DNA of 64,000 bases, from positions 190,428 through 254,427 of the forward strand of contig CAZLYB010000002.1 in the NCBI GenBank assembly GCA_964563795.1, given 5' to 3'. The notes under the pieces are model-generated. The model was not told the DNA's origin. It saw nothing but the letters and a program-made list of their open reading frames with translations, and did not search any database. This stretch comes from an uncultured Bacteriovoracaceae bacterium (GTDB taxonomy: Bacteria > Bdellovibrionota > UBA1018). This document shows positions 26,690-55,991 of the stretch, in pieces. The first letter of the stretch is position 1, and every line of letters starts with the position of its first letter. The position numbers were made by a program, and so were the translations under genes.

Positions 26690-31342
<4,653 letters not shown>

Positions 31343-31355: not shown

Positions 31356-32465
31356 CTAAATGCGCATCGGCATGATGACGTAGGTGTGGTTGGCGTGTCC
31401 CACCCCTTTTAAAACGCCAGGGCTGAGCCGATCTTTCAGTTGAAGCTCCAGCACTTCCGTATTCATCACCGCCAAGCAATCGAGCAAGTAGCGCGAATTG
31501 AAACCGATCTCCAGAGGCTCCCCGGAGTAATCCAAATCCAACTCCTCATTGGCATCCCCCATATCCGGGTTGCTGGAGGAGAGAGAGAGGGAACCCGCTT
31601 GGAGGGAGAGTTTCACACCCCGGCTTTTTTCATGAGCGAGCAAGCTCACTCGCTTCAACGCCGCGTTCAGCTCTTCTCGGTTCATCTTGAAGGAAGGGTG
31701 CACTTCTTTCGGGATGACCATTCGGTAGTCCGGATATTCACCCTCGATCAGTCGGATGAAAAGGTGCTCCTCACCCAAGCGAGCGAATAGGTGACCCCGT
31801 TCAAAAGAAAGACCAATGGAGGCTCCCGCTTCAGGAAGCAGCTTTCGAAGCTCCATCAGGCCTTTTTTAGGGATGATCACACCGCGCTTGAGATCCGGGG
31901 CTCCTAAAAAAACCTCTTGATCGACGAACGAAAGGCGATGGCCATCCGTCGCGGTCATCCTCATCACGTTGTTCTCGAGATGCTCAAAGTAAACGCCGTT
32001 CAAGTGATACCGGGTTGCATCGGTTGAAACCGCGAATTGAGTGCGGTCAATCATGTCGATGAGCGCTTCGGTCCGGGTCTCGAGATATTGCTTTGAGGCG
32101 AAATCAGGGAGAGCAGGGTATTCCTCGGCGGGTAAGCTCACGATGTTGAATCGCGACTTTCCGCAGAGAAGCTCGACCCATTGGTTTTCTTTTTGGGAGA
32201 GCTTGATTTCTTTTTCCGGGAGCTCGCGGACGATATCGAGAAAATTCTTAGCGGCGAGGGTCGTTTTTCCGGGCTGAGTTCCTTGAGCCGGAATTGAGAG
32301 CTGGATTCCCACTTCCAAATCTGTGGTGCTAAGGGAAAGGCGATCGCGCTCTACGACGCAGAGGATGTTTCCTAAAATCGGGATCGTGTTTTTTTTCTCG
32401 ACTACGGATTGGACTTTTTGAAGGGCTTCAAGAAGAGGAGCTCTTTGAATCGTGAAGTTCATCAA
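31356..32465 (-). CDS. dnaN: DNA polymerase III beta sliding clamp
   Basis: 369-aa protein of three-domain beta-clamp size. N-terminus MMNFTIQRAPLLEALQKVQSVVEKKNTIPILGNILC is typical. recF lies downstream. Confidence 0.9.
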   Translation of the reverse strand: MMNFTIQRAPLLEALQKVQSVVEKKNTIPILGNILCVVERDRLSLSTTDLEVGIQLSIPAQGTQPGKTTLAAKNFLDIVRELPEKEIKLSQKENQWVELLCGKSRFNIVSLPAEEYPALPDFASKQYLETRTEALIDMIDRTQFAVSTDATRYHLNGVYFEHLENNVMRMTATDGHRLSFVDQEVFLGAPDLKRGVIIPKKGLMELRKLLPEAGASIGLSFERGHLFARLGEEHLFIRLIEGEYPDYRMVIPKEVHPSFKMNREELNAALKRVSLLAHEKSRGVKLSLQAGSLSLSSSNPDMGDANEELDLDYSGEPLEIGFNSRYLLDCLAVMNTEVLELQLKDRLSPGVLKGVGHANHTYVIMPMRI

Positions 32466-32689
32466 AATCTTTATGAACGCTCGCTCGCCTTTTGTCCAGA
32501 CTTCCTCACCTAAAGTATTCTAGAAAAAATTAGGGCATCCATCCGTGGACTTCTTGTGAACGCTCCCTGCTTGTAAGAACCCAAGCCATTCCTAAACTTT
32601 CTAGATGAGGAGGTGCGCACGAATGAAAAACCAAACAAGGGAGGGGGAGTGTCCCCCTTCTTAAAAGAGATATATCTTAATCGTAGTAG

Positions 32690-33150
32690 TAGTAGAGCGT
32701 GTGGATATGTGGATAAGTGGGTTAAGTTTTCAGAGTTGCAGGAAAAACTATGTGGACAACCGTGGGGATAACTTTGGGGATAAAGCCGATGAATTTGTGG
32801 ATAACTTTCAAAAGCAGTGAAGTTTCGAGTTATCCACAGAGTTATCCCCATTCTTTTGTGGATAACTTTTTTAGCCATTTGTTTTAGTCTGATGAAGATC
32901 AAAGAAACGGTAGATCTAAGTGTTTTTTTAAGAGTTATCCCCAAAAACTGAGTTTTTCATTTTTAATTAAAACTCCAAAAACACTGACTACTCAGTGTGG
33001 ATATGTGGATAAGTTTGCAACTTAATGGAATCAAGGCTGAAAAAATTAAAATGATGGGGATAAGTATGGGGATAACTTGTGGATAGCGATGGGGATAAAA
33101 AACTTATCCACAAGTTATCCCCATACTTATCCACAGAGTTATCCCCAAAA
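32690..33150. other. oriC: chromosomal replication origin (oriC): DnaA-box cluster with AT-rich unwinding element
   Basis: Seven perfect TTATCCACA/TGTGGATAA boxes (starting at 32708, 32797, 32830, 32858, 33005, 33105, 33128) and at least 12 single-mismatch boxes (TGGGGATAA, TTATCCCCA, TGTGGATAT, TGTGGATAG) in both orientations within about 450 bp. AT-rich tracts at 32941-32990 and 33030-33055. Directly upstream of dnaN. Confidence 0.8.
33055..33147. repeat. tightly packed DnaA-box array (8 boxes in 93 bp, alternating orientation)
   Basis: tggggataa(33055) tggggataa(33068) tgtggatag(33079) tggggataa(33090) ttatccaca(33105) ttatcccca(33116) ttatccaca(33128) ttatcccca(33139), with 11-13 bp spacing. 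Confidence 0.8.
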
Positions 33151-33206
33151 ATCAGGTTCTTGAGAAAAGAAGTCGGATCGCTCTCGCTCTGATCATGTCC
33201 TAGAGA

Positions 33207-34259
33207 TCAAGGGCGAGGACGAACCGGTTTCGGTTTGGGTTGCGCTTCATCGGAGTGATAGTCTTCGTAAGTCAATGTGCAGGTGGCGTCCTGATAGGCA
33301 GCATTATTCCGGCCGAGATTTTCCCGCGCGATTTTGAAAGGCCCTCTATAGTTCACTAGATTTACCACCCCTCCTTGCGTGGAGCTGCCGATTCTCTTAA
33401 CGGTTCTCTGCCCATTGTAGCCGTCTGAATAGACGGTGAGGTTGTAAGTCAAGCTGTCGTTGGGAGTGCTGCTGTTTTTGAAGACAGAGTTGACCGTCAT
33501 TTGAGGCCATCGACTTCCCATATCATGGGCGTTGAAATGATAAATCCGATAGGAAGGCGCGGGCGTTTGAGGGTTCAACGTTGGCAGGTAATCCAGGATC
33601 AAATGCTTTTTCGTAGCGCCCAAGCTCACCACCGCTTCTTTCCCAGCTTTGAAATCATTTGAATGACAAACGAGCTCCTTGAGTTTGAAGTGCGGGTCCA
33701 TGAAAGGAAGTGAGTTTGGTTCAAGGCGGGCGGTAGGATCATTTGAGGAAGCGGAAGAGGGAATGTTTTCCTTAATCGTATAATCAATGTCGCAAGTAAG
33801 GAGGAGAGCATCGCGCCCCGTTTGATTGCTCTTGAACTGACCATCACTGCCCATGATGTAGCTATTCGCCAAAACCACGCCCCGGTATTTCAACACGGAT
33901 CCCGGCCGATAACGGATGCGTTCATTATGATTGGACCACTCGGAGTCCGTGAAAAAAGTCAGCGCATAACGATCCTTAGCGTCGGTAAATTTGGAATGAA
34001 TGGTGATGTTTTTTAAATCGCAATCCAAAGCTTGGATAGAGAAATTTACGGGATAAGCTCCTTTTCCATCCTGGAAATTCACCAAAACCGAAGCAGAGTT
34101 TTTTTCAAACGAGGAGGAATGAAACGAAACACCCGAATCTTGGGATTCCATCCCGCACGACATTCTCTCGATCTCGCATACTAATGCGGAGGCATAACTA
34201 TAGGAATGAGTAAACAGAGCAAGAGCCGCAACAGCGGAAGCGTTAAGCGTTTTTTTCAT
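33207..34259 (-). CDS. hypothetical secreted protein (350 aa)
   Basis: Signal peptide MKKTLNASAVAALALFTHSYSYASA. Asn/Ser/Thr-rich, with several Cys. GC lower than flanking DNA. No recognisable motif. Confidence 0.45.
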   Translation of the reverse strand: MKKTLNASAVAALALFTHSYSYASALVCEIERMSCGMESQDSGVSFHSSSFEKNSASVLVNFQDGKGAYPVNFSIQALDCDLKNITIHSKFTDAKDRYALTFFTDSEWSNHNERIRYRPGSVLKYRGVVLANSYIMGSDGQFKSNQTGRDALLLTCDIDYTIKENIPSSASSNDPTARLEPNSLPFMDPHFKLKELVCHSNDFKAGKEAVVSLGATKKHLILDYLPTLNPQTPAPSYRIYHFNAHDMGSRWPQMTVNSVFKNSSTPNDSLTYNLTVYSDGYNGQRTVKRIGSSTQGGVVNLVNYRGPFKIARENLGRNNAAYQDATCTLTYEDYHSDEAQPKPKPVRPRP

Positions 34260-34388
34260 GCGACTTCATTAAACTAAATGAATTCAAAAATCAATTTCAA
34301 TCCAAGCCCCTCGGATAGCGGGAAATGGGGCATTTTTGTACCTCCAGCTACCTTGTTTATTGATAAAAATTAAGTAAGTTGAGGCGTT

Positions 34389-35519
34389 GTGCGCCGTTTT
34401 TTACTCATTTTCTTATCTTTGAGTTTGAGCTCAGGAGGCTTTGCGGCCAACCCATCTTCCTCGCGTCTTTGTTCATCCGCCTTGGTTGCCGTCTCAGATC
34501 GGATCACTGAGAATGCCGCGCGTAAGGCGGAACAGGCTCTTTTAGCGAAGATTCAGGCGGCGAGGCAAGTTGAACTCCCCGTTCCCGCCCCGATTCGGGG
34601 CGCTCAAATGAGCTACTCAGCGAGATTGGCGATGATGAAGTCGATTCCCGCCGATGAGTATCGCCCGTGGATCACGATGATGAGATGGAGTTTAACGCTC
34701 GTTCTTCATCAAAAAAACGGATCCCTCGATTCTTCGATCGCTTGGGTGATCAGTGAGATGGATAAAGCCCTCTCTCAGTCGAACCTCAGTTACTACAACC
34801 TCATGAAGATGATGGAGGGATATGCGATTGCTTTGAGTTTGGACGGCAAGACGGTGGGAGCGACCAAAGTGGAGCTCAAATTAAAAATGCGGGATCACGC
34901 CATTTTGTTCCCGGAGGTCGCAGTCATTCCCACTCGCACATTCTTCGATCCCGATCAGACCGCTGCGCAATCCGCATTGGATGAAGTCGATTACGTGCCC
35001 GTCGATTTCATATGGGAATTTGACGAACCTTCCGGTTACTCCGCCTTTCTGAGGAAAAAACTGGATCGACCTCTCCGTGTTTACGAGTTCTGGGCGGCGA
35101 AGATTCAGCACTCCGAAAAAGCGGTGCCCATTCATTTTTTCATGAGCGCGTTCGAGCGGCACACGAAAAAAGTTTATGAAGACTTGAGGCAGGAGGTCCA
35201 ATCCTCGAATAATTTTTCGGAGAAGCCGGTCGATCACCTTTTAGTGATGAACCTCATTTGGGAAGAGCTCCATTACGGTCGGGAATCACTGTCGCTGACC
35301 AGGGAAGCCGTATTGAGCAAGGAGAAAATAAAAACGATCAATCTCTTGGCGATTGAAGCCAAGCTGAACCGGCTCGGGTACGAGAAAGGAAAAATTAAGT
35401 CCGATCTTTTGAAGATGATTCAAAAGATCGAGGATATTTTCAAATTCAATCCTCTTTTAACTTTGAATGAGCTCAGGGAAAAAATTCACGGTGAGTGGGT
35501 CGCGTCCCGAAAGAATTAA
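34389..35519 (+). CDS. hypothetical secreted protein (376 aa)
   Basis: Signal peptide [20 protein letters not shown]. Lower GC. Divergent from the 33207..34259 gene. No recognisable motif. Confidence 0.45.
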
Positions 35520-35947
35520 CGCTTCGGCGCGTTCTTCGCGATGTACTCCACCACGTCCTTCAAGCTCGCTCCCGGCGTGAAAATCATGTGCACGCCCGCT
35601 TTCTTGAGCGGCCCAAAATCCTCGTCCGGGATGATCCCACCCACGACGAAGATCACATCCTGAAGCCCGGCATTTCTCACTCCATGAATGACCTCAGGCA
35701 CAAGCGCATTATGCGCGCCTGAGAGGATGCTGAGGCCCACGACCTGAACGTCTTCTTGAACAGCGGCGCGCACAATCATGTCCACCGTTTGGTGAAGGCC
35801 CGTGTAAATCACTTCAAAACCCGCGTCCCTAAGCGCCCGGGCGATGACCTTGGCGCCGCGGTCGTGGCCGTCGAGCCCGGGTTTGGCGACGAGCACCCTG
35901 ATTTTTTCGTGTTCGGTTCTAGCGGTTTCAGATGGTCTCTTGCTCAT
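35516..35947 (-). CDS. methylmalonyl-CoA mutase small subunit-like, cobalamin-binding domain
   Basis: 143-aa protein with the B12-binding DxHxxG motif ([13 protein letters not shown]) and a Rossmann-like fold ([24 protein letters not shown]). Adjacent to the catalytic subunit. Confidence 0.8.
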
Positions 35948-35956
35948 GATTTTTTC

Positions 35957-37611
<1,655 letters not shown>

Positions 37612-37615
<4 letters not shown>

Positions 37616-38799
37616 GCGCCCCCCAGCTCCTGAGCGGCGATCACGAGGCGCTGGATCTCCGAAGTCCCCTCGTAAATTTCGGTGATCTTGGAGTCACGGT
37701 AATTTCGCTCGACGACGTACTCCTTGGTGTAGCCGTAGCCGCCGTGGACCTGGATGGCTTTGGTCGCGATCCAAGTGGATGCCTCGGATGCGGCGAGCTT
37801 CGCCATGGCGGCTTCTTTGGTGTACTTGAGCCCGAGGTCTTTGGTGCGGGCTGCGTTCCAGGTGAGGAGGCGCGCCGCTTGGAGGCGCGTGGCCATATCG
37901 GCGATGTGGAATTGAATGGCCTGGAGCTTGGCGATCGGCGCCCCGAATTGCTCGCGCTCGAGCGCGAATTTCTTCGAAGCGTCGAGCGCGCAGCGGGCGA
38001 TGCCCAATGCCTGGGCCGCGATCCCGATGCGTCCGCCATCCAGCGTGTGCAGCGCGATCTTGAGGCCTTGGCCGATTTCGCCCAGGAGCGCGTTCTCCGG
38101 CACGAACACGTCGTCGAAGAAAAGCTGCGCCGTCGAAGACGCGTTGATGCCGAGCTTGTCCTCGAGCTTCGAAACTTGAAATCCCTTGGCTTTAGTGTCG
38201 ACGATGAAGGCGGCGATTCCTTTGTAGCCTTTCGCGGGATCGACATTCGCGAATAGGATGCAGGTGTCGGCTTCTTTTCCGTTGGTGATCCAGTTCTTGG
38301 TGCCTCGGATGCTGTAGCCGCCCGCGATTTTCTTGGCTTGGCACTTCAAACCTGCGGGATCGGATCCGTGTCCTGGCTCCGAGAGCGCGAAGCATCCGAG
38401 CTTTTCGCCGCGGGCGAGGGGCGCGAGGAACGTCTTTTTTTGCTCAGGCGTCCCGAAGTGCTGGATCGGGGAGCAGGTGAGGGAATTGTTCACCGAGAGG
38501 ATCACCGCGGTCGAAGCGCAGGCGGCCGCGATTTCTTCAATCACCATGGCGTAAGAAACCGCGTCGCAACCCGAGCCTCCGAACTCCTCAGGGACCATCA
38601 TTCCCATGAGGCCCATCCCGCCCAGGGATTTGATGATCTCGGCGGGGAACTTCCCGCTTTCATCGAGATGCTTGGCCTGGGGGGCGATCTTGGATTGCGC
38701 GAAGCTCCGAACTTGCTCGAGGAGGAGCTTTTTGGATTCATCAACTTCAGGCCAGCCGAAATAGGGGACCAAGGATTCAGCGTTCATGCTCAAAGCCAC
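37612..38799 (-). CDS. acyl-CoA dehydrogenase
   Basis: 395-aa protein with ACAD motifs ([60 protein letters not shown]). Confidence 0.9.
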
Positions 38800-38802
38800 T
38801 CC

Positions 38803-39594
38803 TCAAAGCCCCTTGAACTGGGGTTTTCTTTTTTCAGTGAAAGCGCCCATGCCTTCGCGTTGATCCGCGCTGCCGAAAAGCTGCCCGAACGAAAGCGCCT
38901 CGGCGTCGAGCTTGAAGTTGAGGCCGATGGATTCGGAGAATTCGTTCATGAGCAACTTGGCGCGCGCGATGGCGGGCTTCGATTGCGAGCCGATTTTTTT
39001 CGCAAGCTCCAGCGCCTGCGCGAGGAAAGTTTCGGCATCCTTGGCTTCAAACACGTGGTTGACGAGCCCCATCTCCTTGGCCTGGGCGGCGTTGATCCGC
39101 TCCCCGCTGAAGATCAGCTCTTTAGCGCGGGGAAATCCCACGAACTTCGCGAGCCTCACCGTGCCGCCGAACCCAGGGATGATCCCCAGGCCCACTTCGG
39201 GCTGGCCGAAGACCGCTTTTTCGCTCGCGACGATGAAGTCGCAGGAAATCGCGAGCTCCGTCCCACCGCCCAAGGCGTAACCGTGAACCGCGGCGATGGT
39301 GGGCATCGGCGCGAGCTCTAATAACTTAGTCACTTCATGCCCGAGCTGCGCGAAGCGAACGGCCTCAGCTGAGTTCTTGTCCCGCATTTCTGCGATGTCC
39401 GCGCCCGCGACGAAGGCCTTTTCGCCGTCGCCCGTCAGCACGATCACGCGGACGGACGAGTCACGCGTTTTTTCGGAGAGCACGGCTTTCAGCTCGTGGA
39501 GCACTTCGGTGTTCAGCGCGTTCAACGCTTGCGGACGCGAGATTTTAATCAGGCAAATTCCGGGCTCAATTTGGGAGAGAATGAGGTTTGGCAT
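38803..39594 (-). CDS. enoyl-CoA hydratase (crotonase family)
   Basis: 263-aa protein with VIVLTGDGEKAFVAGADI, AAVHGYALGGGTELAISCD and catalytic Glu residues. Confidence 0.85.
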   Translation of the reverse strand: MPNLILSQIEPGICLIKISRPQALNALNTEVLHELKAVLSEKTRDSSVRVIVLTGDGEKAFVAGADIAEMRDKNSAEAVRFAQLGHEVTKLLELAPMPTIAAVHGYALGGGTELAISCDFIVASEKAVFGQPEVGLGIIPGFGGTVRLAKFVGFPRAKELIFSGERINAAQAKEMGLVNHVFEAKDAETFLAQALELAKKIGSQSKPAIARAKLLMNEFSESIGLNFKLDAEALSFGQLFGSADQREGMGAFTEKRKPQFKGL

Positions 39595-40478
39595 CAGGCT
39601 TTCGATTCATAGCGGTGGAAGCCGCGCCCTGTTTTTCGTCCCAGCCATCCAGCAGCGACGTGGTTTTTGAGCAGCGGCGCCGGGCGGTAGCGGGGGTCCC
39701 CCAGTCCTTCGTGCAGGACTTGAAGGATGGCGAGGCACGTGTCGAGTCCGATGAAATCCGCGAGCTCAAGCGGGCCCATGGGTTGGTTCGTGCCGAGCTT
39801 CATCGCAGTGTCGATTCCCTCGGCGCTCGCAACGCCTTCTGAGAGCGCGGTGATCGCTTCGTTAATCATCGGCATGAGGATGCGGTTGACCGCGAAGCCG
39901 GGAAAGTCTTTGGCTTCGACGAAGGTCTTGCCCATTTTTTCTGAGACTGCTCGTACGGTTTGAAAGGTCTCGTCGGAGGTTTGGAGTCCACGGATTCCTT
40001 CCACGAGCTTCATGAGGGGGACGGGGTTCATGAAGTGGATGCCGGCGACGAGCGATGGGCGCTGCGTTTGCGCCGCGATCGCGGTCACGCTGATCGAAGA
40101 AGTATTGGTCGCGAGAATGACGCCTGGGGGGCAAGCGGCGTCGAGCTCCTTGAACAGGCGGTATTTGAGTGCGGGGTTTTCGGTGGCGGCTTCGATGACG
40201 AATCCCGCCGCTGAGAGATCTTTGAGACCCGCCACTGGCTGGATCATGGCTAAGGTTTTGTCGCGATCTGCGGCTTGGATTTTCGCTTTTTCGACGAGCT
40301 TGCTGAGCTGAGCTTCGATCTTGGCCTTGCCCTTTTGAGCGAGCTCAAGGCTCTGGTCAGCGAGTAGGACCGAGAAACCGGATTGAGCCGCGGTTTGGGC
40401 AATGCCGATGCCCATTTGGCCCGCGCCCAGGACGCCGAGCACTCGAGGAAGATTGGATTGAGTCATACTCCAACTCAA
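39594..40478 (-). CDS. 3-hydroxyacyl-CoA / 3-hydroxybutyryl-CoA dehydrogenase
   Basis: 294-aa protein with NAD-binding LGVLGAGQMGIGIAQ, the 3HCDH N- and C-domain pattern (ATNTSSISVT, HFMNPVPLMKLVE). Confidence 0.85.
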   Translation of the reverse strand: MSWSMTQSNLPRVLGVLGAGQMGIGIAQTAAQSGFSVLLADQSLELAQKGKAKIEAQLSKLVEKAKIQAADRDKTLAMIQPVAGLKDLSAAGFVIEAATENPALKYRLFKELDAACPPGVILATNTSSISVTAIAAQTQRPSLVAGIHFMNPVPLMKLVEGIRGLQTSDETFQTVRAVSEKMGKTFVEAKDFPGFAVNRILMPMINEAITALSEGVASAEGIDTAMKLGTNQPMGPLELADFIGLDTCLAILQVLHEGLGDPRYRPAPLLKNHVAAGWLGRKTGRGFHRYESKA

Positions 40479-40515
40479 GTATCCAATGCTTACGTCAAGT
40501 GCAAGGGGTAGTGAA

Positions 40516-41205
40516 TTATTGGCTCACCGGGGGGCAATAGCAGTAATTTAGATTTCCCTCGCATTTTTTAGCGCCAGCTTTTTTAAGTAGCGAAACAATG
40601 GTGTTTCCCATGAAATCCCTAACGACAGCGCCGACACTCGCAAGGTCGGCTTCATCGGCGATCGCATCATCGAGGTCAGAATGAGGTGTACGAATTCGGC
40701 AGGAGAACTTATTGAGGTCGATCGTATTTTTTATATTTTTCAGCCTCATTTTTTTTGATGCCTCCAATAGGAGGTTTACCGCCAAAATCGAGTGACGGCT
40801 GATTGCATAGCCCAACGGGGTATTTGGAGGCAGCATCCCTCTTGAAATCCCTTCCCTGAATGAAAGAGTGTTGATCAGTTGGCTGACTTCATCCAAGAGC
40901 ACTCCATTTTCAGCGAGGAACTCGATGAGTTCAGGATGACACTTAATTTCTTTTCCTTGATTAACCCCTAAATGGCATCCGATCGCCGCATAAGCGATGA
41001 GGTTGAGCCCAAAAACCCTGTCATTTGGAAAAAATTCGCCATTTTGAATCATATCCTGCAGCGCTTTTTTATCACCCCGGTCGATTACATTTTTAATATG
41101 GAGAAGAGGATTCTCCTGAGAAAATGCGCTCCATGAATTCGCTGCAAATGCTGCCAAAACCAAGCCACAACACACCGATTTATTTATTAAACTAAAAAAT
41201 TTCAT
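40516..41205 (-). CDS. secreted ankyrin-repeat protein (lower-GC islet)
   Basis: ATG at 41205 with GGAG RBS; the track ORF begins at a GTG at 41220. Signal peptide MKFFSLINKSVCCGLVLAAFAANSWSA. Ankyrin-like units (NTPLGYAISRHSILAVNLLLEASKK; DRVFGLNLIAYAAIGCHLGVNQG). The region is visibly more AT-rich than its neighbours. Confidence 0.5.
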   Translation of the reverse strand: MKFFSLINKSVCCGLVLAAFAANSWSAFSQENPLLHIKNVIDRGDKKALQDMIQNGEFFPNDRVFGLNLIAYAAIGCHLGVNQGKEIKCHPELIEFLAENGVLLDEVSQLINTLSFREGISRGMLPPNTPLGYAISRHSILAVNLLLEASKKMRLKNIKNTIDLNKFSCRIRTPHSDLDDAIADEADLASVGAVVRDFMGNTIVSLLKKAGAKKCEGNLNYCYCPPVSQ

Positions 41206-41243
41206 TTGCTCCGAATACACTAAAATAGTTAATCAGTGAAGCC

Positions 41244-42644
41244 TTATTTCCCAATGCAAAACCCCGTAAAAATCCGCGTGAGCAGGTCATCGGCCAAAGT
41301 GACACCAATGATGGGACCTAGCGAATGAAGCGCCTGGCGCAGATCCGCCGCTAGAAATGCTGGCTCCTGAGCCAGGCGAGCGCGGTTGAGGTGTTCCAGT
41401 GCCTCACGAACGGCACGTAGGTGGTCCAAGCGAGTGAGGAGCACTTCTTGAGGGGAGCGGTGAATTTTCGCTTCGCAAAGCGAGACCAGCTGTTCAACCG
41501 TTTCTCTAAGGCCCTGGCCGTTTTGAGTGGAAGTGGCGATCCACTGCCGAATTCCTCTGAAGGAGGTTGGAGTAGGCGCAGTCCCCACTAGATCGAGCTT
41601 CGTGAAAATCCCAAGGGCCTCCGGCGGATGGGGAGTGCCGCTTAGGATCGAATTCCATGACGCCTCAATCTCCATCAGCTGCTTGGACGAGCTTGAGGCT
41701 TCGACAAGCAAGAGCACCAAATCCGCTTTTCTCGCTGCGGCCGTGGCGCGCTGAATTCCCTCACGTTCAATGGGATCGAGCGAGGCGCGGAGTCCTGCCG
41801 TATCTTCGAGGTTCAAGGTGATGCTGCTGGATTTTCCACGAAGCGTGATCCGCTCCCGCACGAGGTCGCGCGTGGTACCGGCGATTTCAGAGACGATGGA
41901 GCGGTTCTCGCCCAGGATCGCGTTGAAGAAGCTCGATTTTCCGACGTTGGGAAGACCGATGAGCGCGATCCTGAACCCTTCTTGGAGCCGGGTACCCCGG
42001 TCAAAACTGTTTTCGAGGCGCTCCAGCGTCCCGATGAGCGGCGGAATTTTCCGGATCAACCGACTGAGGCTCACTTCATCGATGTCCTGATCCGAGAAAT
42101 CAATCCCCAGTTCCGCAAGCGCGGCGAGCTGCCGGAGCTCCTCGGCGAGCTCCGAGAACAAGCGTTGCTGCGTGCCCGAAAGTTTCTCGAGCGCGAGCGC
42201 GAGCGCTCCATCGTTGCTCGCGGAAATCACTTCCGAGACGGCCTGAGCCTGTGAGAGCGTGAGGCGCCCGTTCCTCACCGCGCGAAAACTGAATTCCCCC
42301 GGCAGCGCCTGGCGCGCGCCGAGTGAGACGATCGCCTCAAGAACCCGCTCCGCAACGAAACTCCCGCCATGCAGGAAATATTCGACGCAGTCTTCGCCCG
42401 TGTAACTGCGTGGCGCATCGAAGCGCGCCGCGAGCGCATCATCAAGCAGCGCGTCCGTGGAAGGGTTTCGAAGCAGCACGCGAGTCATGGAGCGCGGTTG
42501 GAATTTGCTCAAATCAGGAACACGCGAAAGTTTGAGCAATGTTTCGTGCGCCCGCGGGCCGCTCACGCGCAGTATCGAAAGGGCACCACCGGTCGCCGCG
42601 GCGATCGCCGCGATCGTGTCTTCGGCGAAATAATCAGCGGACAT
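41244..42644 (-). CDS. mnmE: tRNA modification GTPase MnmE
   Basis: 466-aa protein with a G domain (GLPNVGKSSFFNAILG, DTAGLR, TKLD) and the diagnostic C-terminal CIGK. Confidence 0.9.
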   Translation of the reverse strand: MSADYFAEDTIAAIAAATGGALSILRVSGPRAHETLLKLSRVPDLSKFQPRSMTRVLLRNPSTDALLDDALAARFDAPRSYTGEDCVEYFLHGGSFVAERVLEAIVSLGARQALPGEFSFRAVRNGRLTLSQAQAVSEVISASNDGALALALEKLSGTQQRLFSELAEELRQLAALAELGIDFSDQDIDEVSLSRLIRKIPPLIGTLERLENSFDRGTRLQEGFRIALIGLPNVGKSSFFNAILGENRSIVSEIAGTTRDLVRERITLRGKSSSITLNLEDTAGLRASLDPIEREGIQRATAAARKADLVLLLVEASSSSKQLMEIEASWNSILSGTPHPPEALGIFTKLDLVGTAPTPTSFRGIRQWIATSTQNGQGLRETVEQLVSLCEAKIHRSPQEVLLTRLDHLRAVREALEHLNRARLAQEPAFLAADLRQALHSLGPIIGVTLADDLLTRIFTGFCIGK

Positions 42645-42661
42645 TTTCGCTCACAAAAAAA

Positions 42662-44302
42662 TCAGCGGGCCTGAACCACCACGTTCGTGTTCACGCGAGG
42701 TTTGAGATCGAGCTTCTTATTGAGGTAGAGCTGCTGCGCGATGCTCGCGATCGCGTTGACCAGCATGTAGAGCGTGAGGCCCGAAGGCAATGAGATCATG
42801 AGCAGGCCGAAGAACACCGGCATGAACTGCATCATCTTTTGCTGAGCGGGATCCGCGGCCGGAGTCGGCGAAAGTTTTTGCTGAAGGTACATCGTCACGG
42901 TCAGGAGGATCGGGGTGACGTAAAAAGGATCGTGGCTTGAGAGGTCCTTGATCCAGAAGATGAAAGGCGCGTGATACAGCTCGATCGAGCTGTAGAGCAC
43001 CCGGTAGAGCGCGAAGAACACCGGCATCTGAATCAGGATCGGCAAGCAACCCGACATGGGGTTGTAGCCATGGCTCCGCATCAGTGACAGCATTTCTCGG
43101 TTGAGCGCCTCTTTATTGTCTTTGTATTTTTCGCGGAGCTTCTGAAGTTGAGGCTGGATGCGAGCCATTTCCTTCATGCTCTTCATGCTCTTGTAAGTCA
43201 GCGGATAGGTGATGAGCTTGATAAAGAGCGTGAGGACGATGACGGACCATCCGTAGTTTCCGATGAACAAATAGAGCCACTTCAAAAGCTTCAAAATCGG
43301 ATAGGCCACCAAAGTAAACCAACCCAAATCAATTGTATGATCCAAGAGAGGATCGACGGCGCGAAGGGCGTGGAGCTCCTTGGGTCCGAAGTAAGCTTTC
43401 AGGGGAATCGAAATCGAAGTCCCTGCTCCCGGAGCTGCGGTGATCGGATAGACCAAACTCAAGCGACCCGCCTTGGGCCCGGCGGATTGCAGAAGTCCCC
43501 GTGGTTCGGAGCCTTCGCCGGCGAGAACGCTCATGAGAAAGTAGCGGTTCGTCGCCCCGATGTATTTGACGTTGGTGGCGATCGGCGTGAGATCAACCTC
43601 TTTTTCCACGGTGTGGCGCTCCAGTTTGGACGCACTCCAATAGATCAGCTGCCGATCCGCCGCTTCGGGGTCTTTTTCCAAAATACTTTTTGAATAAAGG
43701 GAGACGAACGCGTGAGCGGGGGCTTGCGCCTTGAATTGGGCGTCGATGCGGATTTGAACCGAAAGCTGATCCGGCGCGGGGGTGAAAAGCCGGGTGAGCT
43801 TTACTTTCGCATCCTCATAACTCCAGAGCACGCCTTGTGGAGTTGAAGAGAGTTGGCCTTTGACTTCATTGAGGTAGCTGTATTGGGCATCATCGAATGC
43901 GAGCTCGATTTCGCCATTTTCATGGGTGACCGAGGAAAGGTCCACTCGCGCGGCATTCGCATTGATGTTGAGTTTGTAGCTTTTCAGCTCCCACCCAACG
44001 AAAAAGCGATGGCCGCTGCCGATTTTCGCTTCACCGGTCCCTGTGGAAAGCGGGAGAAAGTCGGGGCCAGCATTTCCACGCAGAGCCGCGGAAGGCGGAG
44101 TTTTTTGGAGGGTCGCAGGGGCGAGCGCTTGGGTGGGGGAAGAGGGAGGGTTCGGCGAGGTCGACTGGGTCGTTACGGCGACCGGCGCAGATTTGCCGGG
44201 TTCGAGATAATACTTTTGCCAAGCGACGAAGATGGCAAAACTCAAAGCAAAAGCGATTACGGTTTTACGATCCATTCGAGAGTTCCTTTGGAACAGGGTC
44301 AA
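42662..44302 (-). CDS. yidC: membrane protein insertase YidC
   Basis: 546-aa protein with an N-terminal TM, a large periplasmic domain and a C-terminal five-TM core ([29 protein letters not shown]..., [16 protein letters not shown]). Confidence 0.9.
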
Positions 44303-44540
44303 ACCCCGGGTTGGAAAAAGGGTGGCAACGAGAAATCCGTTTCAGCGCGAACCATGAACCTTTGAGGAGGCCATGCCTTTGAATCGCTTCCTCGCAGTAC
44401 CGGCTGCAGGTGGGATCAAACCGGCATCCCGAAGATGAGCCCACGAGGAGGTGCAAAGCGGGGCTAATGAAGATTCGATAGACTTTAAAAATCATGAGGA
44501 TCGAGCCTGCGAGCCTTGGGACTTTAGATGGTCGGCCCAT
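44265..44540 (-). CDS. yidD: membrane protein insertion efficiency factor YidD
   Basis: YidD/haemolytic-domain signature [40 protein letters not shown]. Overlaps the yidC start, the standard arrangement. Confidence 0.8.
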
Positions 44541-44878
44541 TCCTGAGAGAGCGCATTTTGCAGCTTCTGCGCGTAGAGGTAAGTCATTTTTTTATGAGCG
44601 GGGATGACGACGTTGTAATCATAGGGGCCCAACAGAGGAGCCTGTCTCCTGAATGCCTCTCGAACGACGCGTTTGACTCGGTTTCTTTCAACCGAACTTC
44701 CACGGGCTTTCAAGGTGATTCCGAGGCGGAAAGAATTCATTTCATTCTGAATGCGGAAAACCACGGCTTCCGTCAGGCGGAAGGCTTGACTGCCCTGGAA
44801 AAAACGCCGGTACTCCCAGCGATAATGCAGGCGGTTCTTGAATTCGAGCCGCTGAGGATTATTTGCCAGCTGCTTCAA
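44492..44878 (-). CDS. rnpA: ribonuclease P protein component
   Basis: 128-aa basic protein with the RnpA motif region ([27 protein letters not shown]). Lies between rpmH and yidD. Confidence 0.8.
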
Positions 44879-45008
44879 CGGTCAGGCGCTTGCGACCCTT
44901 TGCGCGGCGGCGCTTGAGGATGAGCCTTCCGGTTGGGGTTGCCATTCTGGCGCGAAAACCGTGCCTCCTCCGGCGTTTTGTTCGGCTGGGCTGATAAGTT
45001 CTTTTCAT
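44859..45008 (-). CDS. rpmH: 50S ribosomal protein L34
   Basis: Not in the ORF track (49 aa). Minus-strand translation [49 protein letters not shown] is a near-consensus L34. Divergent from dnaA. Confidence 0.9.
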
Positions 45009-45129
45009 AATAAATTTACCGTCCGCTGGTGTTAACGGACAGCGTCGTCATTGTCAAGATCGTCGCAGTAGTGCAAATAGTTTTTTTAAACCCTGCAGGC
45101 CCGGTGTTATAGAGGTTGAAGAGCGTTTT

Positions 45130-46644
45130 ATGGACCACTCCCTTTCCAATTCTATCCCCGCTTCCCAGCCTTGGAGCAATTCTGAAGAGCTTTGGGCGGC
45201 GATCCTTCGTCAGCTGGAGCAGCAGGTCGTCTCCCATCAGATGCAAACATGGATTGCCCCCTTGAAGTGCCTCGAAATCAACGAGGAAGCCACCACTCTA
45301 GTCTTGAGAGTGACGGTTCCCAATGACTTCTCCTCGCAGTGGGTGAAGGATCACTATAAAAAACAAATTGAAACCCATGCGGAGCAGTTGACGGGGCGGG
45401 AATGCGTTTTGTCCCTCGAGGTCCAGCAGGAAGTGATGCCTTTTTTCAGGCGCGGAGGAGGGGGAACTGCGCCGGGCTTGACGGTAGGAGCATCCTCCCA
45501 AGCTTCTGAAGAATCTTCCCTTCCTCACGCTTCAGATGACCTTTTGCTTCCTTCGAATAGTTCCCCGCCCCCGCGTCCGTCCGGGATTTACGGGCCTCCC
45601 GCAGCCCCGACGTCTAAATCTCTCGAAGAAGCGAGCCTCGATCCTCGTTATGTTTTTGAAAGCTTCGTCGTTGGCGCGAGCAATCAGTTCGCGCACGCAT
45701 CAGCCGTGGCCGTGGCGGAGCAACCAGCGCGCCAATACAACCCGCTTTTTTTATATAGCCCCCCGGGCCTCGGTAAAACTCATCTCCTGCACGCGATCGG
45801 CAATTACTGGATGGCTAAAAACCCGCGCGCCCGCGTAGCCTATCTCTCGGCCGAGCGATTCGTGAACGAGCTCATTGATTCGCTCCAGCACCGAAAGATG
45901 CCGGACTTTCGCGCGAAATACCGCAATAGCTACGATATGATTTTGATTGATGACATCCAATTCATCGCCGGAAAAAACACCAGCGAAGAGGAGTTTTTTC
46001 ACACCTTTAACGCGCTTCATGGTTCCAAGCGCCAGATCGTCGTGACCAGCGATCGCGCGCCGAAGGAGATCGAAGGGCTAGAGGAACGAATCCGCACCCG
46101 CTTCGAGTGGGGTCTAGTCGCCGATATCAGCCCCCCCGAGATCGAGACCCGGATCGCGATCCTGAAGGCCAAGGCAGAGCGCGACGATATCTACCTACCC
46201 GATGAAGTGGCGACATTCCTCGCGACTTATATCAAATCCAACGTGCGCGAGCTCGAGGGCGTTCTGATCCGTCTGCAAGCGCAGGCTTCGCTCACGGGGG
46301 CGGAGATCTCGCTTGAGATGGCCAAGCAAGAACTCAAGACCGCGGTTCCGGAAGAAGGGTCACACTTCACCCTCGAGTCAATTCAGAACGCGGTGGCACG
46401 GCATTTTCAGCTCAAGGTGCAGGATCTCAAGGCTCCCGGCAGGACCAAAAGTGTCGCGCTTGCCCGTCAGATCGCGATGTACCTCATCCGCAAATACACC
46501 GGCATGGGTTTCAAGGAGATCGGTCAATTCTTCGGCGGCAAAGATCACACGACGATCATGCACGCGTGCACGAAGATCGAGCGCAACGTGGAGTCGGATC
46601 CCGCGATCCGCGATGCGGTGGAGTCCGTGCAGAACTTGCTTTGA
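45130..46644 (+). CDS. dnaA: chromosomal replication initiator protein DnaA
   Basis: 504-aa protein with a Pro/Ser-rich linker, AAA+ domain III (NPLFLYSPPGLGKTHLLHAIGN, ILIDDIQF, SDRAPKE) and a domain IV HTH (ALARQIAMYLIRKYTGMGFKEIGQFFGGKDHTTIMHACTKIE). Confidence 0.95.
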   Translation: MDHSLSNSIPASQPWSNSEELWAAILRQLEQQVVSHQMQTWIAPLKCLEINEEATTLVLRVTVPNDFSSQWVKDHYKKQIETHAEQLTGRECVLSLEVQQEVMPFFRRGGGGTAPGLTVGASSQASEESSLPHASDDLLLPSNSSPPPRPSGIYGPPAAPTSKSLEEASLDPRYVFESFVVGASNQFAHASAVAVAEQPARQYNPLFLYSPPGLGKTHLLHAIGNYWMAKNPRARVAYLSAERFVNELIDSLQHRKMPDFRAKYRNSYDMILIDDIQFIAGKNTSEEEFFHTFNALHGSKRQIVVTSDRAPKEIEGLEERIRTRFEWGLVADISPPEIETRIAILKAKAERDDIYLPDEVATFLATYIKSNVRELEGVLIRLQAQASLTGAEISLEMAKQELKTAVPEEGSHFTLESIQNAVARHFQLKVQDLKAPGRTKSVALARQIAMYLIRKYTGMGFKEIGQFFGGKDHTTIMHACTKIERNVESDPAIRDAVESVQNLL

Positions 46645-46656
46645 TTCGAACGAATT

Positions 46657-47169
46657 TTATTCTCGGCAGTGGATGTTGCCTGAAAGCTCCAACTCACCGA
46701 TGCAATCCAAGTGAACGCGCCCGCCGCTGCATCTCGCATAAGGAGTCACTCTTACCACTTCAACTCTATCTAACACGTAGGATACGAAATTCATTCCATG
46801 CGCAAAACTGCAAACGTCTCTCAGATATTGCTCTGAGGGAAGATGGTGGACGAAACGGGTATTGATGCAGGAATAAAGAAAGGGTTGCACGTTAACAGGC
46901 CCCTCCACATAGCAAGTGCCATAAGTTTGTCCGACGGTAGATTGGATCCGCTCTTGAAAAAGATCCCCAACATACCGATCTGCGCTTACCTTGACGGGTT
47001 GAGTAGGTATTGAAGGCAGTGTTGATGATGTTTGTTGGGTACCACTGATTCGAGCGGGTCCAACGCCTCGAGTGAGGCCATTAACTGCATTGGCTTCGGG
47101 TGTCTGAACCCAGAGCAAAAATCCCATCGTAAATGATCGAACAAGAATTGAGCGTAGAAGATTTTTCAT
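46657..47169 (-). CDS. hypothetical secreted Cys-containing protein (170 aa)
   Basis: Signal peptide MKNLLRSILVRSFTMGFLLWVQTPEANA, with six Cys. Convergent with dnaA, 12 bp between the two stops. No recognisable motif. Confidence 0.4.
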   Translation of the reverse strand: MKNLLRSILVRSFTMGFLLWVQTPEANAVNGLTRGVGPARISGTQQTSSTLPSIPTQPVKVSADRYVGDLFQERIQSTVGQTYGTCYVEGPVNVQPFLYSCINTRFVHHLPSEQYLRDVCSFAHGMNFVSYVLDRVEVVRVTPYARCSGGRVHLDCIGELELSGNIHCRE

Positions 47170-47318: not shown

Positions 47319-48875
47319 TCAGATCCGGCGCTCTTTTTTGAGCCACTGCACCCACTGCGAGAGCAGGTGCGGAATCGTTTTTAGCTTGGCGATCCAGGAG
47401 CGACGGTGAAGTCCGAGAAGCAATTTAAATACATCATATTGAGCCGTGGAATAGGGGAACCACCAGGGTGATTTGAAAGTAAGGAATCCCCAGCTAGGCT
47501 GGTGGATGTGCTGAGTTCGCACGAGCTCGTAAAGCCCTTCGTCTGAATGAGTCCGTCCAAATCCGCTGTCTTTGACCCCTCCCCAGGGGGTTTCGGCGAG
47601 GCCCGCGGTGTAAAGCACCTCATTGATCGTCACGGTCCCAACCTCGAGCTGCCGAGCAACGCGGTTGCCCAGGGCCAGATCGCGCGTGATCACGCTTGCG
47701 AGGAGGCCGTAAGGGCTGCGGTTCACTTTTTGGACGCCCTCAGCGATGGACTGATAAGTGGTCATCGCGATGACCGGGCCGAAAGTCTCCTCCCGGTAGA
47801 TCAGGAGCGACTCTACGTCGCGGCTGCTGATGAGCGTAGGCTGGAGCGATCGCCCATCTGCCGAGAATTCCCCGCCAGACAAAAAATCCGCGCCCGCTTG
47901 CTTCGCTTCTTGGAGGTGTTTGGAGTAGATTTCTTTCTGTTTCTCGAAAGTAATGGATCCCAAGTCGGTATTGAGTGCGTCTTGAGGGTGGCGCCGGAGA
48001 AGCGCGATCTTGGCCCGGAGTTTTTCGGAGAACGCTGCGGCGATGCTCTCGTGGACGATGAGGCGCTCCGTCGAGGCGCACGCTTGGCCCGAGTTGGTGA
48101 ATCCCCCCCAGAGCGCGGCGCTCGTCGCGAAATCCAGGTCAGCGTCCGGCAGGACGAGCATGGCGTCTTTTCCACCCAGTTCCAGGAGGAGGGGTGTCAG
48201 ATTTTGTGAAGCCGCGCTCATGATTTTTTTTCCGGTAGCGACGCTCCCAGTGAAAATAATTTTATCTGGTTTTTGTTGAACGATGGCTGCGCCCAGCTCC
48301 GGGCCCCCGATCAAAGTCTGGATCAGGCCGGGCGGGAAGCTGCAGCGGTCGAAAAGCTCCTGGATTTTCAGCCCGACCAGGGGAGTAACCTCGCTGGGTT
48401 TGAAAACGACCGCGTTTCCCGCCGCAATCGCCGTGGCGATCTGCCCGAAGGGCAGGAGCAATGGGTAGTTCCAAGGGGCGATGACCGCGATCACTCCCCA
48501 AGGGACGGAGTGCAGCGCGCTTTTTCGATGCTTCATCATTTGAAGCTTCACCCGCCGCGGGCGCAGAAGCTTCGGAGCTCGCTTCGCGAAATAACTGAGG
48601 AGCTCGACACTCGGGAGAACCTCATTCGAAAGCGCCTCGAACCGCGGCTTGCCGTTCTCCCGGGAGATCAACTCCGAGACCGCGTCCGCTTGATCGATCA
48701 GGACTTCGCGCAGTTCCAGGAGCACGCTCGCGCGTCTTCGCGGGGATTCAACGGACCAGCGGGTCTGGGCATCCTTCGCGCGGAGAAAGGTTTTTTCGAG
48801 CGATTCAACTGGGGTTTGATCGAGCTCCGCCAAAATTTCGCCGGTCGACGGGTTCTTCGTGATGAGTTTTTCCAT
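47319..48875 (-). CDS. NAD(P)-dependent aldehyde dehydrogenase
   Basis: 518-aa protein with ALDH motifs: the Glu active site LELGGKDAMLVL, catalytic Cys in FTNSGQACASTERL, and Rossmann-fold GSVATGKKI. Confidence 0.85.
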   Translation of the reverse strand: MEKLITKNPSTGEILAELDQTPVESLEKTFLRAKDAQTRWSVESPRRRASVLLELREVLIDQADAVSELISRENGKPRFEALSNEVLPSVELLSYFAKRAPKLLRPRRVKLQMMKHRKSALHSVPWGVIAVIAPWNYPLLLPFGQIATAIAAGNAVVFKPSEVTPLVGLKIQELFDRCSFPPGLIQTLIGGPELGAAIVQQKPDKIIFTGSVATGKKIMSAASQNLTPLLLELGGKDAMLVLPDADLDFATSAALWGGFTNSGQACASTERLIVHESIAAAFSEKLRAKIALLRRHPQDALNTDLGSITFEKQKEIYSKHLQEAKQAGADFLSGGEFSADGRSLQPTLISSRDVESLLIYREETFGPVIAMTTYQSIAEGVQKVNRSPYGLLASVITRDLALGNRVARQLEVGTVTINEVLYTAGLAETPWGGVKDSGFGRTHSDEGLYELVRTQHIHQPSWGFLTFKSPWWFPYSTAQYDVFKLLLGLHRRSWIAKLKTIPHLLSQWVQWLKKERRI

Positions 48876-48886
48876 GCCCTTCCCTC

Positions 48887-50629: not shown

Positions 50630-50632
50630 ACG

Positions 50633-51652
50633 TTAAGGAGTCGCGAGACGATCGAGCAGTTCTTTTTTGAATCCGCTGCGCATTTTCGTGCAATAAAGCG
50701 CGTGATCCGGAGTTTCAAGATCGGGCGAAGCCAACAAATAGGGCTTATAATTGCCAGAAGCTTTCGGGGTCGTCTCCTCGTCATTAGGGAGCGATTGAAT
50801 TTGGACGGGCTGGGTTTCGCAATCAATGCCTTCAGCACGAATCGCATAACCCATCGCCGCGGACTCAAAGGGATTCAACCCATCCACCGAAAAAAGTTTT
50901 TTCCAGAGCTTGAGCCATTCCAAAGCATGGGGAGCCAGCCATTGAGCCGCAGCCCCCCCTTTTTGAAGAAGCTTCAAATCTTCTTCGTTCAGCCAAATCT
51001 GGGATGAGAGTTCAAATGGAATCAAGACCACCGGGACATTCGCATTGAAAAGAGCCTGAAAGGCGGCCGGGTCCATCTCGAAATTGAAATCCCGGTGGGC
51101 TCTCGTGTTGGTCGTTCCCGTCGTAAAGCGTGCGAGCGGGCGTCGTCCCCCCATGGCGATCACCTGAATGATGTTGGCTTTGAGCTCAGGATGATTTTTG
51201 ATCACCGTGGCGATGTTGGTCAGAGGGCCCAGAGCGACTAAAGTGAGTGGCTCTTTTTTGAGAGACTCTGTCATCGCGCGACTCGCCGGAGTCTCTTGCC
51301 CGAGCGCATCCGCGTTCGAAGCACCGGCATAAACTTTTAAGCCGACGGGTCCAAAGCGCTCCACGACGGATTGAGCGATGGGCGTGACGCGGTCCAAGGG
51401 GATGTTTCCGAATACGGTGCTCACGCCTTTGAGGGTGATTTCGGGGGAGTGGAACGCTTGAATCAGAGCGATGGCGTCATCCAAGTCCCGGTTCTTCTCA
51501 GCGGCGCTGATGTCGGTGTCGATCCAGAGAGCGGAGTTGAGCCGCGGTGCTGCAGGGGTGGGGAGGGGGCGAGTCGTGGAACAATGGGAAGTGAAAATCA
51601 AAATCGCTCCCCAAAAGCTGAGGAGTATGAGTCGTTTTTTCTTCGTGAGCAT
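50633..51652 (-). CDS. secreted inosine-uridine preferring nucleoside hydrolase family protein
   Basis: Signal peptide. N-terminal Asp cluster IDTDIS...DLDDAIAL and TVFGN, resembling IU_nuc_hydro motifs, though the Asp motif is interrupted. Confidence 0.55.
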   Translation of the reverse strand: MLTKKKRLILLSFWGAILIFTSHCSTTRPLPTPAAPRLNSALWIDTDISAAEKNRDLDDAIALIQAFHSPEITLKGVSTVFGNIPLDRVTPIAQSVVERFGPVGLKVYAGASNADALGQETPASRAMTESLKKEPLTLVALGPLTNIATVIKNHPELKANIIQVIAMGGRRPLARFTTGTTNTRAHRDFNFEMDPAAFQALFNANVPVVLIPFELSSQIWLNEEDLKLLQKGGAAAQWLAPHALEWLKLWKKLFSVDGLNPFESAAMGYAIRAEGIDCETQPVQIQSLPNDEETTPKASGNYKPYLLASPDLETPDHALYCTKMRSGFKKELLDRLATP

Positions 51653-51760
51653 CGCCCAAGTCTAGCCAGAAATATTGCCGCTAAGAAAGTTGTTTTATCT
51701 GAAAGCGGTCATGGGCTTGTCATGTCCGGGGGGCTGCGGTAGAAGCAGGTTGCTTAAGGT

Positions 51761-51837
51761 GCGGGTGTAGCTCAGTTGGCTAGAGTGCGAGCTTCCCAAG
51801 CTTGAGGTCGAGGGTTCGAGCCCCTTCACCCGCTCCA
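51761..51837 (+). tRNA. tRNA-Gly (anticodon CCC)
   Basis: Hand-folded cloverleaf: acceptor GCGGGTG/CACCCGC, D-arm GCTC..GAGT, anticodon stem CGAGC/GCTTG with loop TTCCCAA (anticodon CCC), T-arm GAGGG TTCGAGC CCCTT, discriminator T, encoded CCA. Confidence 0.85.
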
Positions 51838-55970: not shown

Positions 55971-55991
55971 TCAGGGGATAAGGGGAATCCA

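Follow-up and report, generated by a model that had tools for sequence, protein, structure and literature searches.

We analysed a 64-kb window (the whole stretch of DNA whose first lines stand above) from the genome of an uncultured member of the Oligoflexia/Bdellovibrionota. In this window, dnaA lies 12.0 kb from the cluster of DnaA boxes beside dnaN and on the strand opposite to dnaN, so the canonical adjacency of dnaA to the replication origin (oriC) is lost. Few gene orders in bacteria are as well conserved as that around dnaA and dnaN, and searches for replication origins routinely rely on it. We propose that an old inversion of about 11 kb, running from the methylmalonyl-CoA mutase (mcm) genes through rpmH and dnaA, became fixed and has been inherited ever since, next to an origin that stayed attached to dnaN, and that low-GC genes were gained later. 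We consider this explanation quite likely to be correct.

The window reads gyrB-recF-dnaN (minus strand), oriC, a block that is mostly on the minus strand, dnaA (plus strand), and then mnmG-rsmG-parAB-atp (plus strand; Table 1). If 33207-46656 is flipped in silico, the result is the reverse complement of the canonical gyrB-recF-dnaN-oriC-dnaA|rpmH-rnpA-yidD-yidC-mnmE...mnmG-rsmG-parAB-atp. The first-pass annotation of this DNA had described the locus in just this way, as a canonical origin cluster with one segment inverted, and the gene identities and strands (NCBIfam) agree with it, as do canonical relatives with the same genes (L005, L082, L126, L127, and L081). It had also described 12 kb of the block as all on the minus strand, which is mostly so, but the 376-aa open reading frame (ORF) at 34389-35519 is on the plus strand. 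On the other side of oriC, dnaN, recF, gyrB, fabH, and gyrA are all on the minus strand, from 32465 down to 24158, so the canonical collinearity is kept there. rpmH (minus) and dnaA (plus) are divergent neighbours with a spacer of 121 bp.

Other bacteria have the same arrangement. A DnaA-based scan of one genome per species identified uncultured Oligoflexia, Bdellovibrionales, and "Bacteriovoracaceae" metagenome-assembled genomes as the nearest relatives (53-66% identity in DnaA), and a protein search added about 120 DnaA proteins at 61-70% identity. We determined gene orders in these relatives by tblastn mapping and by gene-context look-ups. At least nine other assemblies of Oligoflexia/Bdellovibrionota relatives, with DnaA 61-70% identical, have the inverted-type order, and they come from different samples and species (NCBI, ENA, and JGI). 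Both junctions are present in five of them: L013 (on a 1.68-Mb contig); L121/L128 (GCA_023701205.1, in one stretch); L123; L124; and L125/L129 (Bdellovibrionales GWB1_55_8, whose two loci overlap at 99.985% identity). In L001, L002, L004, L122, and the P0007 contig, we see the dnaA-side junction, and the other junction is off the contig or beyond an inserted gene. In every inverted genome with the dnaN side in view, the box cluster lies between dnaN and the block and not beside dnaA. L004, L121, and the P0007 contig also share the window's right-flank order after dnaA. L013 is without mcm genes, and acad adjoins oriC instead. (In L013, at 10001-11384, the match of dnaA to the query is broken into two, with one piece for residues 20-341 and one for about 348-504, which suggests a frameshift, probably a sequencing error.)

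The canonical order is also found nearby. L005 and L082 have acad-ech-hbd-mnmE-yidC-yidD-rnpA (minus), dnaA (plus), oriC, and then dnaN recF gyrB fabH gyrA (plus); mcmC was also detected upstream in L005. The box cluster directly follows dnaA in L006, L126, L127, and L081. In the last three it is an oriC of 16-17 boxes, and dnaN-recF come next in L127 and L081. The more distant L014, L015, and L023 have parB-parA-rsmG-mnmG-mnmE-yidC-yidD (minus), dnaA (plus), and oriC, with dnaN-recF-gyrB-gyrA beyond oriC in L015 and L023. A collinear run on the gyrB-recF-dnaN side is common to L005, L082, L127, L128, and L129. Relatives thus show both the ancestral and the derived state, together with the genes needed to turn one into the other by a single inversion. 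The inverted clade is also deep: apart from the closely related pair L122/L123, its members are 53-68% identical in YidC and 48-62% identical in MnmE.

The first-pass annotation suggested a recent rearrangement or a mis-assembly. An inversion of recent date, or a wrong join in the contig, confined to this genome, would explain the departure from so conserved a gene order, the placement of rpmH-rnpA-yidC head-on to replication, and the foreign-looking low-GC genes at both junctions. We now regard this as extremely improbable. Shared synteny in at least nine other assemblies, with both junctions in five, already refutes it, and the junction genes are insertions that are absent from relatives with the same inversion. 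A recent inversion should also give the block the opposite skew from its flank, as that annotation predicted, and put the minimum of the cumulative GC skew at 46.6 kb. We see neither: on the plus strand, the block has a GC skew of +0.041 (z = +3.5), compared to -0.028 left of oriC and +0.063 in the right flank, and the minimum is at 31566, beside oriC. The annotation had said that related genomes with this order, and with skew that fits the current orientation, would speak for an ancient state, and that is what the relatives have.

To date the inversion, skew at fourfold-degenerate sites within the window alone was considered and dropped, as flank genes that are co-directional with the fork are also C-biased at these sites. 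We therefore compared orthologues across genomes, which gave a clear signal. Pooled across the block genes, the coding-strand skew at fourfold sites is -0.085 to -0.336 in 9/9 inverted loci with enough sites, and it is +0.146 in L126, +0.074 in L005, +0.010 in L082, and +0.210 in L006 (the near canonical loci). For dnaA, the skew is about 0 to +0.21 in inverted loci (except in the window, where it is -0.10), -0.13 to -0.30 in near canonical loci (-0.245 in L126), and -0.12 to -0.38 over all canonical loci except L014 (+0.09). For the four genes from mnmE to rnpA, it is -0.064 in the window, -0.01 to -0.36 in the other inverted genomes, and +0.06 to +0.20 in near canonical loci. In both arrangements, then, enough time has passed for strand-specific mutation bias to reach equilibrium. 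The strand bias of the organism is only moderate, as 30 of the 45 ORFs called in the flanks, outside the block, are co-directional with the fork.

The relatives also allow us to place the breakpoints. When nine oriC regions, from inverted and canonical genomes alike, are aligned, the alignment continues for about 25 nt past the outermost box, and in canonical L127 that box is separated from the dnaA stop codon by 30 nt. One break therefore probably fell in a short interval, a few tens of bases long, that runs from the dnaA stop codon to the first DnaA box. A second break appears to lie just past the 3' end of mcmC: in L121, L123, and L124, oriC directly abuts the mcmC stop. At the dnaA-side junction, the stop of the aldehyde dehydrogenase gene (aldh) is 6 bp after dnaA in L121, tail-to-tail; dnaA and aldh converge with a 4-nt overlap in L122 and L123; and in L125 mnmG directly follows dnaA, which is the neighbour expected from a clean inversion of canonical ...mnmG|mcm...dnaA|oriC. 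These breaks would have damaged no gene and no origin element. Since oriC has both breakpoints (about 33.2 or 35.5 kb, and 46.65 kb) on its right, the inversion is not origin-symmetric.

The two values for the left end differ by the low-GC ORFs. The 350-, 376-, 234-, and 170-aa ORFs have 44-49% GC (48-49% for the 350- and 376-aa ORFs at the left junction and 44% for the 234-aa ORF), versus 56-60% for their neighbours, and all four have N-termini that resemble signal peptides. The 350-, 376-, and 170-aa ORFs belong to no Pfam or NCBIfam family. By tblastn, 0/129 related loci contain homologues of the ORFs at 33207-35519, 40516-41220, and 46657-47169, and the position of the 234-aa ORF, between hbd and mnmE, is empty in L004 and in L121-L125. 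We conclude that these genes for putative secreted proteins were probably inserted after the inversion and in this lineage only, so the ancestral inverted segment would be 35516-46644 (mcmC through dnaA), or 11.1 kb. The first-pass annotation was right that the block contains low-GC secreted genes and that a 12-bp gap follows the dnaA stop, but the inversion did not carry those genes, and in the window its left end would lie at 35516 and not at 33207. The "ankyrin gene" of that annotation is the 234-aa ORF, whose sole Pfam match (Ank_4, E = 0.027) scores 15.2 bits, below the cut-off of 22.7 bits, so we do not accept that identity. Inserts at the junction of oriC and the block differ in other inverted genomes: L122 has an ankyrin-repeat protein there, the P0007 contig an esterase, and L129 a 416-aa protein. 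The junction adjacent to the origin seems to accept new genes readily. A further region of low-GC ORFs, at 21734-23269, likewise at a junction between genes near the origin, is also without a family or a homologue in the relatives.

To locate the origin, we searched the 64-kb window for TTATCCACA with up to one mismatch, using 100 shuffles as a control. There were 23 matches, compared to 6.4 expected by chance (no shuffle reached 23), and 20 of them are within 32700-33147: 7 perfect copies of TTATCCACA and 13 with one mismatch, chiefly TTATCCCCA. The oriC region (32466-33206) has a GC content of 39%. By the same search, there is no DnaA box within 12 kb of dnaA, the spacer between rpmH and dnaA included. 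A 144-aa ORF inside oriC (32510-32944) has no NCBIfam or Pfam match, and we consider it spurious.

At the dnaN-proximal end of oriC, 32658-32716 looks like an unwinding core of the basal-unwinding-system type. Read on the minus strand, it is TTATCCACATATCCACA-CGCT-CTACTACTACTA, and then a stretch of 23% GC. TTATCCACATATCCACA (32716-32700) consists of overlapping tandem boxes, namely a perfect TTATCCACA and ATATCCACA; it is followed by the CGCT spacer (32699-32696), four CTA repeats that would be DnaA-trios (32695-32684), and the AT-rich stretch (32683-32658). The core fits published criteria for searching sequences for this system (PMC8287927). They allow up to two mismatches in a DnaA box, which is often one of a tandem pair, and up to 16 bp between the better box and the first trio, a short GC-rich gap included, and they ask for at least three trios with a central adenine, mostly 3'-GAT-5'. 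Here, the first trio is 12 nt from the better box (8 nt of the second box plus CGCT), and the plus strand has four TAG trios at 32684-32695. Compared to the basal unwinding system of Pelliciari et al. 2021 (PMC8287927), the core has no difference in sequence, and the likeness is one of sequence alone. The same arrangement of DnaA boxes, short GC-rich spacer, GAT trios, and AT-rich stretch was found experimentally in Bdellovibrio bacteriovorus (PMC5124646). The tandem boxes, the short GC spacer, and (CTA)4-5 are kept in 7/7 relatives whose sequence reaches that end of oriC, and in the alignment of nine oriC regions, oriC is colinear in inverted and canonical relatives and has the same orientation relative to dnaN. 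The basal unwinding system reportedly comprises one or more DnaA boxes, DnaA-trios, and an AT-rich region, as described by Richardson in 2016.

The origin also seems to be duplicated internally. Two modules, at about 32700-32865 and 32996-33147, both open with tandem boxes (GTGTGGATATGTGGATAAGT), and within them perfect TTATCCACA boxes alternate with TTATCCCCA variants at a spacing of about 11-12 bp. The DnaA-trios adjoin the first module only.

We predict that the box cluster beside dnaN is the active origin. If it were instead a relic or a site that titrates DnaA, and replication began near dnaA or elsewhere, then the block would not be head-on to replication. The skew that we rely on covers only 64 kb, which leaves some room for this idea, and we judge it very unlikely. 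All of the basal-unwinding elements (tandem boxes, 4-nt spacer, four 3'-GAT-5' trios, and AT-rich stretch) are present and are kept across both arrangements; dnaA has no box within 12 kb; and the skew changes sign at 31.6 kb. Also, inverted and canonical genomes have fourfold skews of different sign for the block genes and for dnaA, which is the pattern expected for forks that leave a dnaN-adjacent origin.

Several results do weigh against a single old inversion beside an active origin. The case for origin activity consists of sequence anatomy and skew, and the skew minimum is a local one, from 64 kb of genome. Skew from the window on its own is noisy: co-directional genes in the left flank are also negative (-0.073 on the coding strand), and the window's values for dnaA (-0.10) and mnmE-rnpA (-0.064) are weaker than those of other inverted genomes. 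We found no pair of inverted repeats linking the junctions at 33.2-35.5 kb and 46.6 kb (the longest inverted repeats in this search were all DnaA boxes inside oriC), and none of the ORFs tested from 23 to 53 kb matched a family of recombinases or transposases; the same two negatives led us to reject a repeat-mediated or site-specific invertible segment. Finally, neighbour-joining trees nest the canonical L126/L127/L081 among the inverted genomes, with bootstrap support of 0-32% for monophyly of the inverted genomes, and if only L005 is used as the outgroup, support for monophyly by resampling of estimated log-likelihoods (RELL) in a maximum-likelihood analysis is 32%.

These trees raise the possibility that the segment flipped more than once, either because L126/L127/L081 is a reversion or because several lineages underwent independent inversions at the same two intergenic sites. 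(L081 and L127 group together with 93-96% bootstrap and the DnaA proteins of L126 and L127 are 90% identical, so we treat the three as one lineage.) With DnaA+YidC+MnmE, neighbour-joining gives a clade of all inverted genomes plus canonical L126 with 100% bootstrap, and L005, L082, and L006 are outside it. The canonical lineage is nested with DnaN+RecF, with GyrB (0% for inverted monophyly), with GyrB+DnaA, and with DnaN+RecF+GyrB+GyrA; with RecF, L127 pairs with L128 (94%). The oriC of inverted L121 also shares the loss of two DnaA boxes with the canonical lineage. An apparent conflict between the two sides of oriC over the position of L082 dissolved, as both sides fit L082 as the nearest outgroup.

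However, distance methods can be misled by the short branches of the canonical lineage, which would pull it inward. We used maximum likelihood to evaluate all 105 topologies for six taxa (eight proteins, 3,969 columns, Poisson+F+gamma); this is a simple model, and one taxon is a composite of the related contigs L126 and L127. In the best tree, the inverted genomes are monophyletic and canonical L126/L127 is their sister, and pairing L121 with the canonical lineage costs 40 log-likelihood units. RELL support for inverted monophyly is 51% with both outgroups and 94% with the nearer one, L082, alone. Since maximum likelihood with gamma rates reverses the nesting, we do not rely on the neighbour-joining result. 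The skew of L126 is fully of the canonical type, and there are no inverted repeats or recombinase to drive repeated precise flips. Wherever the left junction is seen, the 3' end of mcmC faces oriC, with no gene or one inserted gene between them (L013 is the exception). We think it rather unlikely that the segment flipped repeatedly, and we favour, by a modest margin, one inversion in the common ancestor of the clade; the canonical lineage appears to branch off at the base of the inverted clade or slightly within it. We infer both that there was a single event and that selection has tolerated it.

If a single inversion is the correct explanation, then the complete origin (box arrays, tandem boxes, DnaA-trios, and AT-rich element) would have stayed with dnaN-recF-gyrB, and dnaA would have moved 8-12 kb away and onto the other strand relative to dnaN. 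The origin beside dnaN would still be where replication begins. From the inversion onwards, the rightward fork would have met rpmH-rnpA-yidD-yidC-mnmE and the beta-oxidation and mutase genes head-on, and dnaA would have exchanged the head-on orientation of the canonical layout for a co-directional one. (The first-pass annotation had noted this head-on placement of the block genes with respect to a rightward fork from oriC, and it follows from their orientation in the sequence.) Strand-specific mutation bias would then have re-equilibrated, and later this lineage alone would have gained genes for low-GC secreted proteins at both junctions and inside the block.

The best-studied comparison is the cluster of Bdellovibrio bacteriovorus (Makowski et al. 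2016, PMC5124646), which is from the same phylum and has the same genes in the canonical layout, with divergent rpmH and dnaA and a tested oriC between dnaA and dnaN, directly upstream of dnaN. In our window, by contrast, dnaA and the genes on the rpmH side are inverted as one segment, which leaves dnaA 12 kb off and opposite to dnaN. The origin is also larger, about 450 bp with 20 boxes, versus a 232-bp spacer with 8 boxes in B. bacteriovorus (PMC5124646), and unlike in the B. bacteriovorus cluster, fabH lies between gyrB and gyrA.

The separation itself has precedents. Origins apart from dnaA are known in other bacteria; in Escherichia coli, oriC is between mnmG (gidA) and mioC, about 40 kb from dnaA. 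E. coli likewise has its initiator gene and its origin apart, so adjacency is dispensable, but there dnaA-dnaN-recF-gyrB is intact and the origin is elsewhere, while here the origin stays with dnaN and dnaA was apparently moved by an inversion. Fixed inversions near the origin also have a counterpart in the origin-symmetric inversions that Eisen and colleagues and Tillier and Collins reportedly described in 2000 from X-shaped genome alignments. Those inversions span the origin and keep the orientation of genes relative to the fork; this one lies on one replichore with one end at the edge of the origin, so every gene in the segment is reversed relative to replication. The event is of an ordinary kind. 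What is particular is the highly conserved locus, the precise cut, the one-sidedness, and the persistence across a deep clade. Our searches of the full-text literature did not find a description of this rearrangement.

A clade of environmental Bdellovibrionota has thus cleanly broken the dnaA-dnaN order. A complete classical origin would need only the context on the dnaN side and not the adjacency of dnaA, and an essential, presumably highly expressed operon may remain head-on to replication over long evolutionary time. As a practical matter, an origin finder that takes dnaA as its anchor would be off by 8-12 kb in its placement of oriC in the inverted genomes. The inversion could also be used as a rare genomic character for the clade.

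The pairing of canonical and inverted lineages would make it possible to test, with a control, whether proteins evolve faster when their genes are oriented head-on. Relative to the proteins on the dnaN side, the rate for YidC+MnmE is 1.78, 2.30, and 2.13 in three inverted genomes, versus 1.54 in the canonical lineage, and the rate for DnaA is 0.40, 0.72, and 0.63, versus 0.83. Both differences run in the direction that the conflict hypothesis would predict. With a single canonical lineage, a taxon that is a composite, and a simple model behind them, these rates are a lead and not a result. It is conceivable, and in our view doubtful, that we are seeing a natural experiment, with rpmH-rnpA-yidD-yidC-mnmE and dnaA long kept in opposite orientations to the fork in sister lineages, in which whichever orientation is head-on evolves faster and that the canonical lineage is a true reversion. 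A reversion would imply selection to restore co-orientation.

Two other kinds of arrangement turned up among the relatives. In the more distant L007 (9983-21458), mcm, beta-oxidation genes, mnmE, and yidC are upstream of dnaA, as in the window, and a TylF-like methyltransferase lies 9 bp after dnaA, followed by unknown genes; the skew of dnaA is +0.19. There is no cluster of DnaA boxes and no dnaN within 10 kb, so this would be a third arrangement that separates dnaA from oriC. L087 (4132-11122) and L088 (3578-15586), from a distant lineage with DnaN 37% identical, have yidD-yidC-mnmE-acyl-CoA dehydrogenase-dnaN-gyrB(-gyrA) on one strand, with less than 300 bp upstream of dnaN and with no dnaA or recF detected in between. 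Their polarity is that of the inverted layout, and they may be a parallel case.

The features of the window are listed in Table 1. The names mnmG, rsmG, parA, and parB are based on length, position, and tblastn orthology to loci with the matching Pfam families. The only Rfam match in the window is the tRNA-Gly.

Table 1. Genes and other features around the origin, with positions in the window.
Feature	Position	Strand	Family evidence
TPR protein (left of gyrA; run from TPR gene to dnaN)	23.3-32.5 kb	-	
gyrA	24158-26683	-	Pfam
fabH	26690-27709	-	Pfam
gyrB	27706-30144	-	NCBIfam equivalog
recF	30110-31342	-	NCBIfam equivalog
dnaN	31356-32465	-	NCBIfam equivalog
Non-coding stretch with oriC, 741 bp	32466-33206		
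350-aa ORF	33207-34259	-	no family
376-aa ORF	34389-35519	+	no family
mcmC/mcmN (methylmalonyl-CoA mutase)	35516-37615	-	NCBIfam
Acyl-CoA dehydrogenase	37612-38799	-	NCBIfam
Enoyl-CoA hydratase	38803-39594	-	NCBIfam
3-hydroxybutyryl-CoA dehydrogenase	39594-40478	-	NCBIfam
234-aa ORF	40516-41220	-	no family above cut-off
mnmE	41244-42644	-	NCBIfam
yidC	42662-44302	-	NCBIfam
yidD	44265-44540	-	NCBIfam
rnpA	44492-44878	-	NCBIfam
rpmH	44859-45008	-	NCBIfam
dnaA	45130-46644	+	TIGR00362, 527 bits
Gap from dnaA stop to next ORF, 12 bp	46645-46656		
170-aa ORF	46657-47169	-	no family
Aldehyde dehydrogenase (-), ribonucleotide reductase (+), nucleoside hydrolase (-), tRNA-Gly, 421-aa ORF (-)	47.3-53.2 kb		
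mnmG, rsmG, parA, parB, bactofilin, atpF-atpD	53.3-63.8 kb	+	
Right flank, uninverted (aldehyde dehydrogenase through parB)	47319-57833		

In some related organisms, gyrB contains an intein (P0161, P0162, and P0172; GyrB of 1,247-1,383 aa, with the intein or homing-endonuclease domains PF14890 and PF14528). We also note that the ATP synthase operon is in two parts, one on each side of the origin. In the window, atpB and atpE (19841-20903, minus strand) are to the left of gyrA and the TPR gene, and atpF, atpF', atpH, atpA, atpG, and atpD (58358-63784, plus strand) come after parB and bactofilin, on the right. L128/L129 and L121/L125 have the operon divided in the same way, and canonical L127 has an atpI-like gene after the TPR gene, so the split seems to predate the inversion or to be independent of it.

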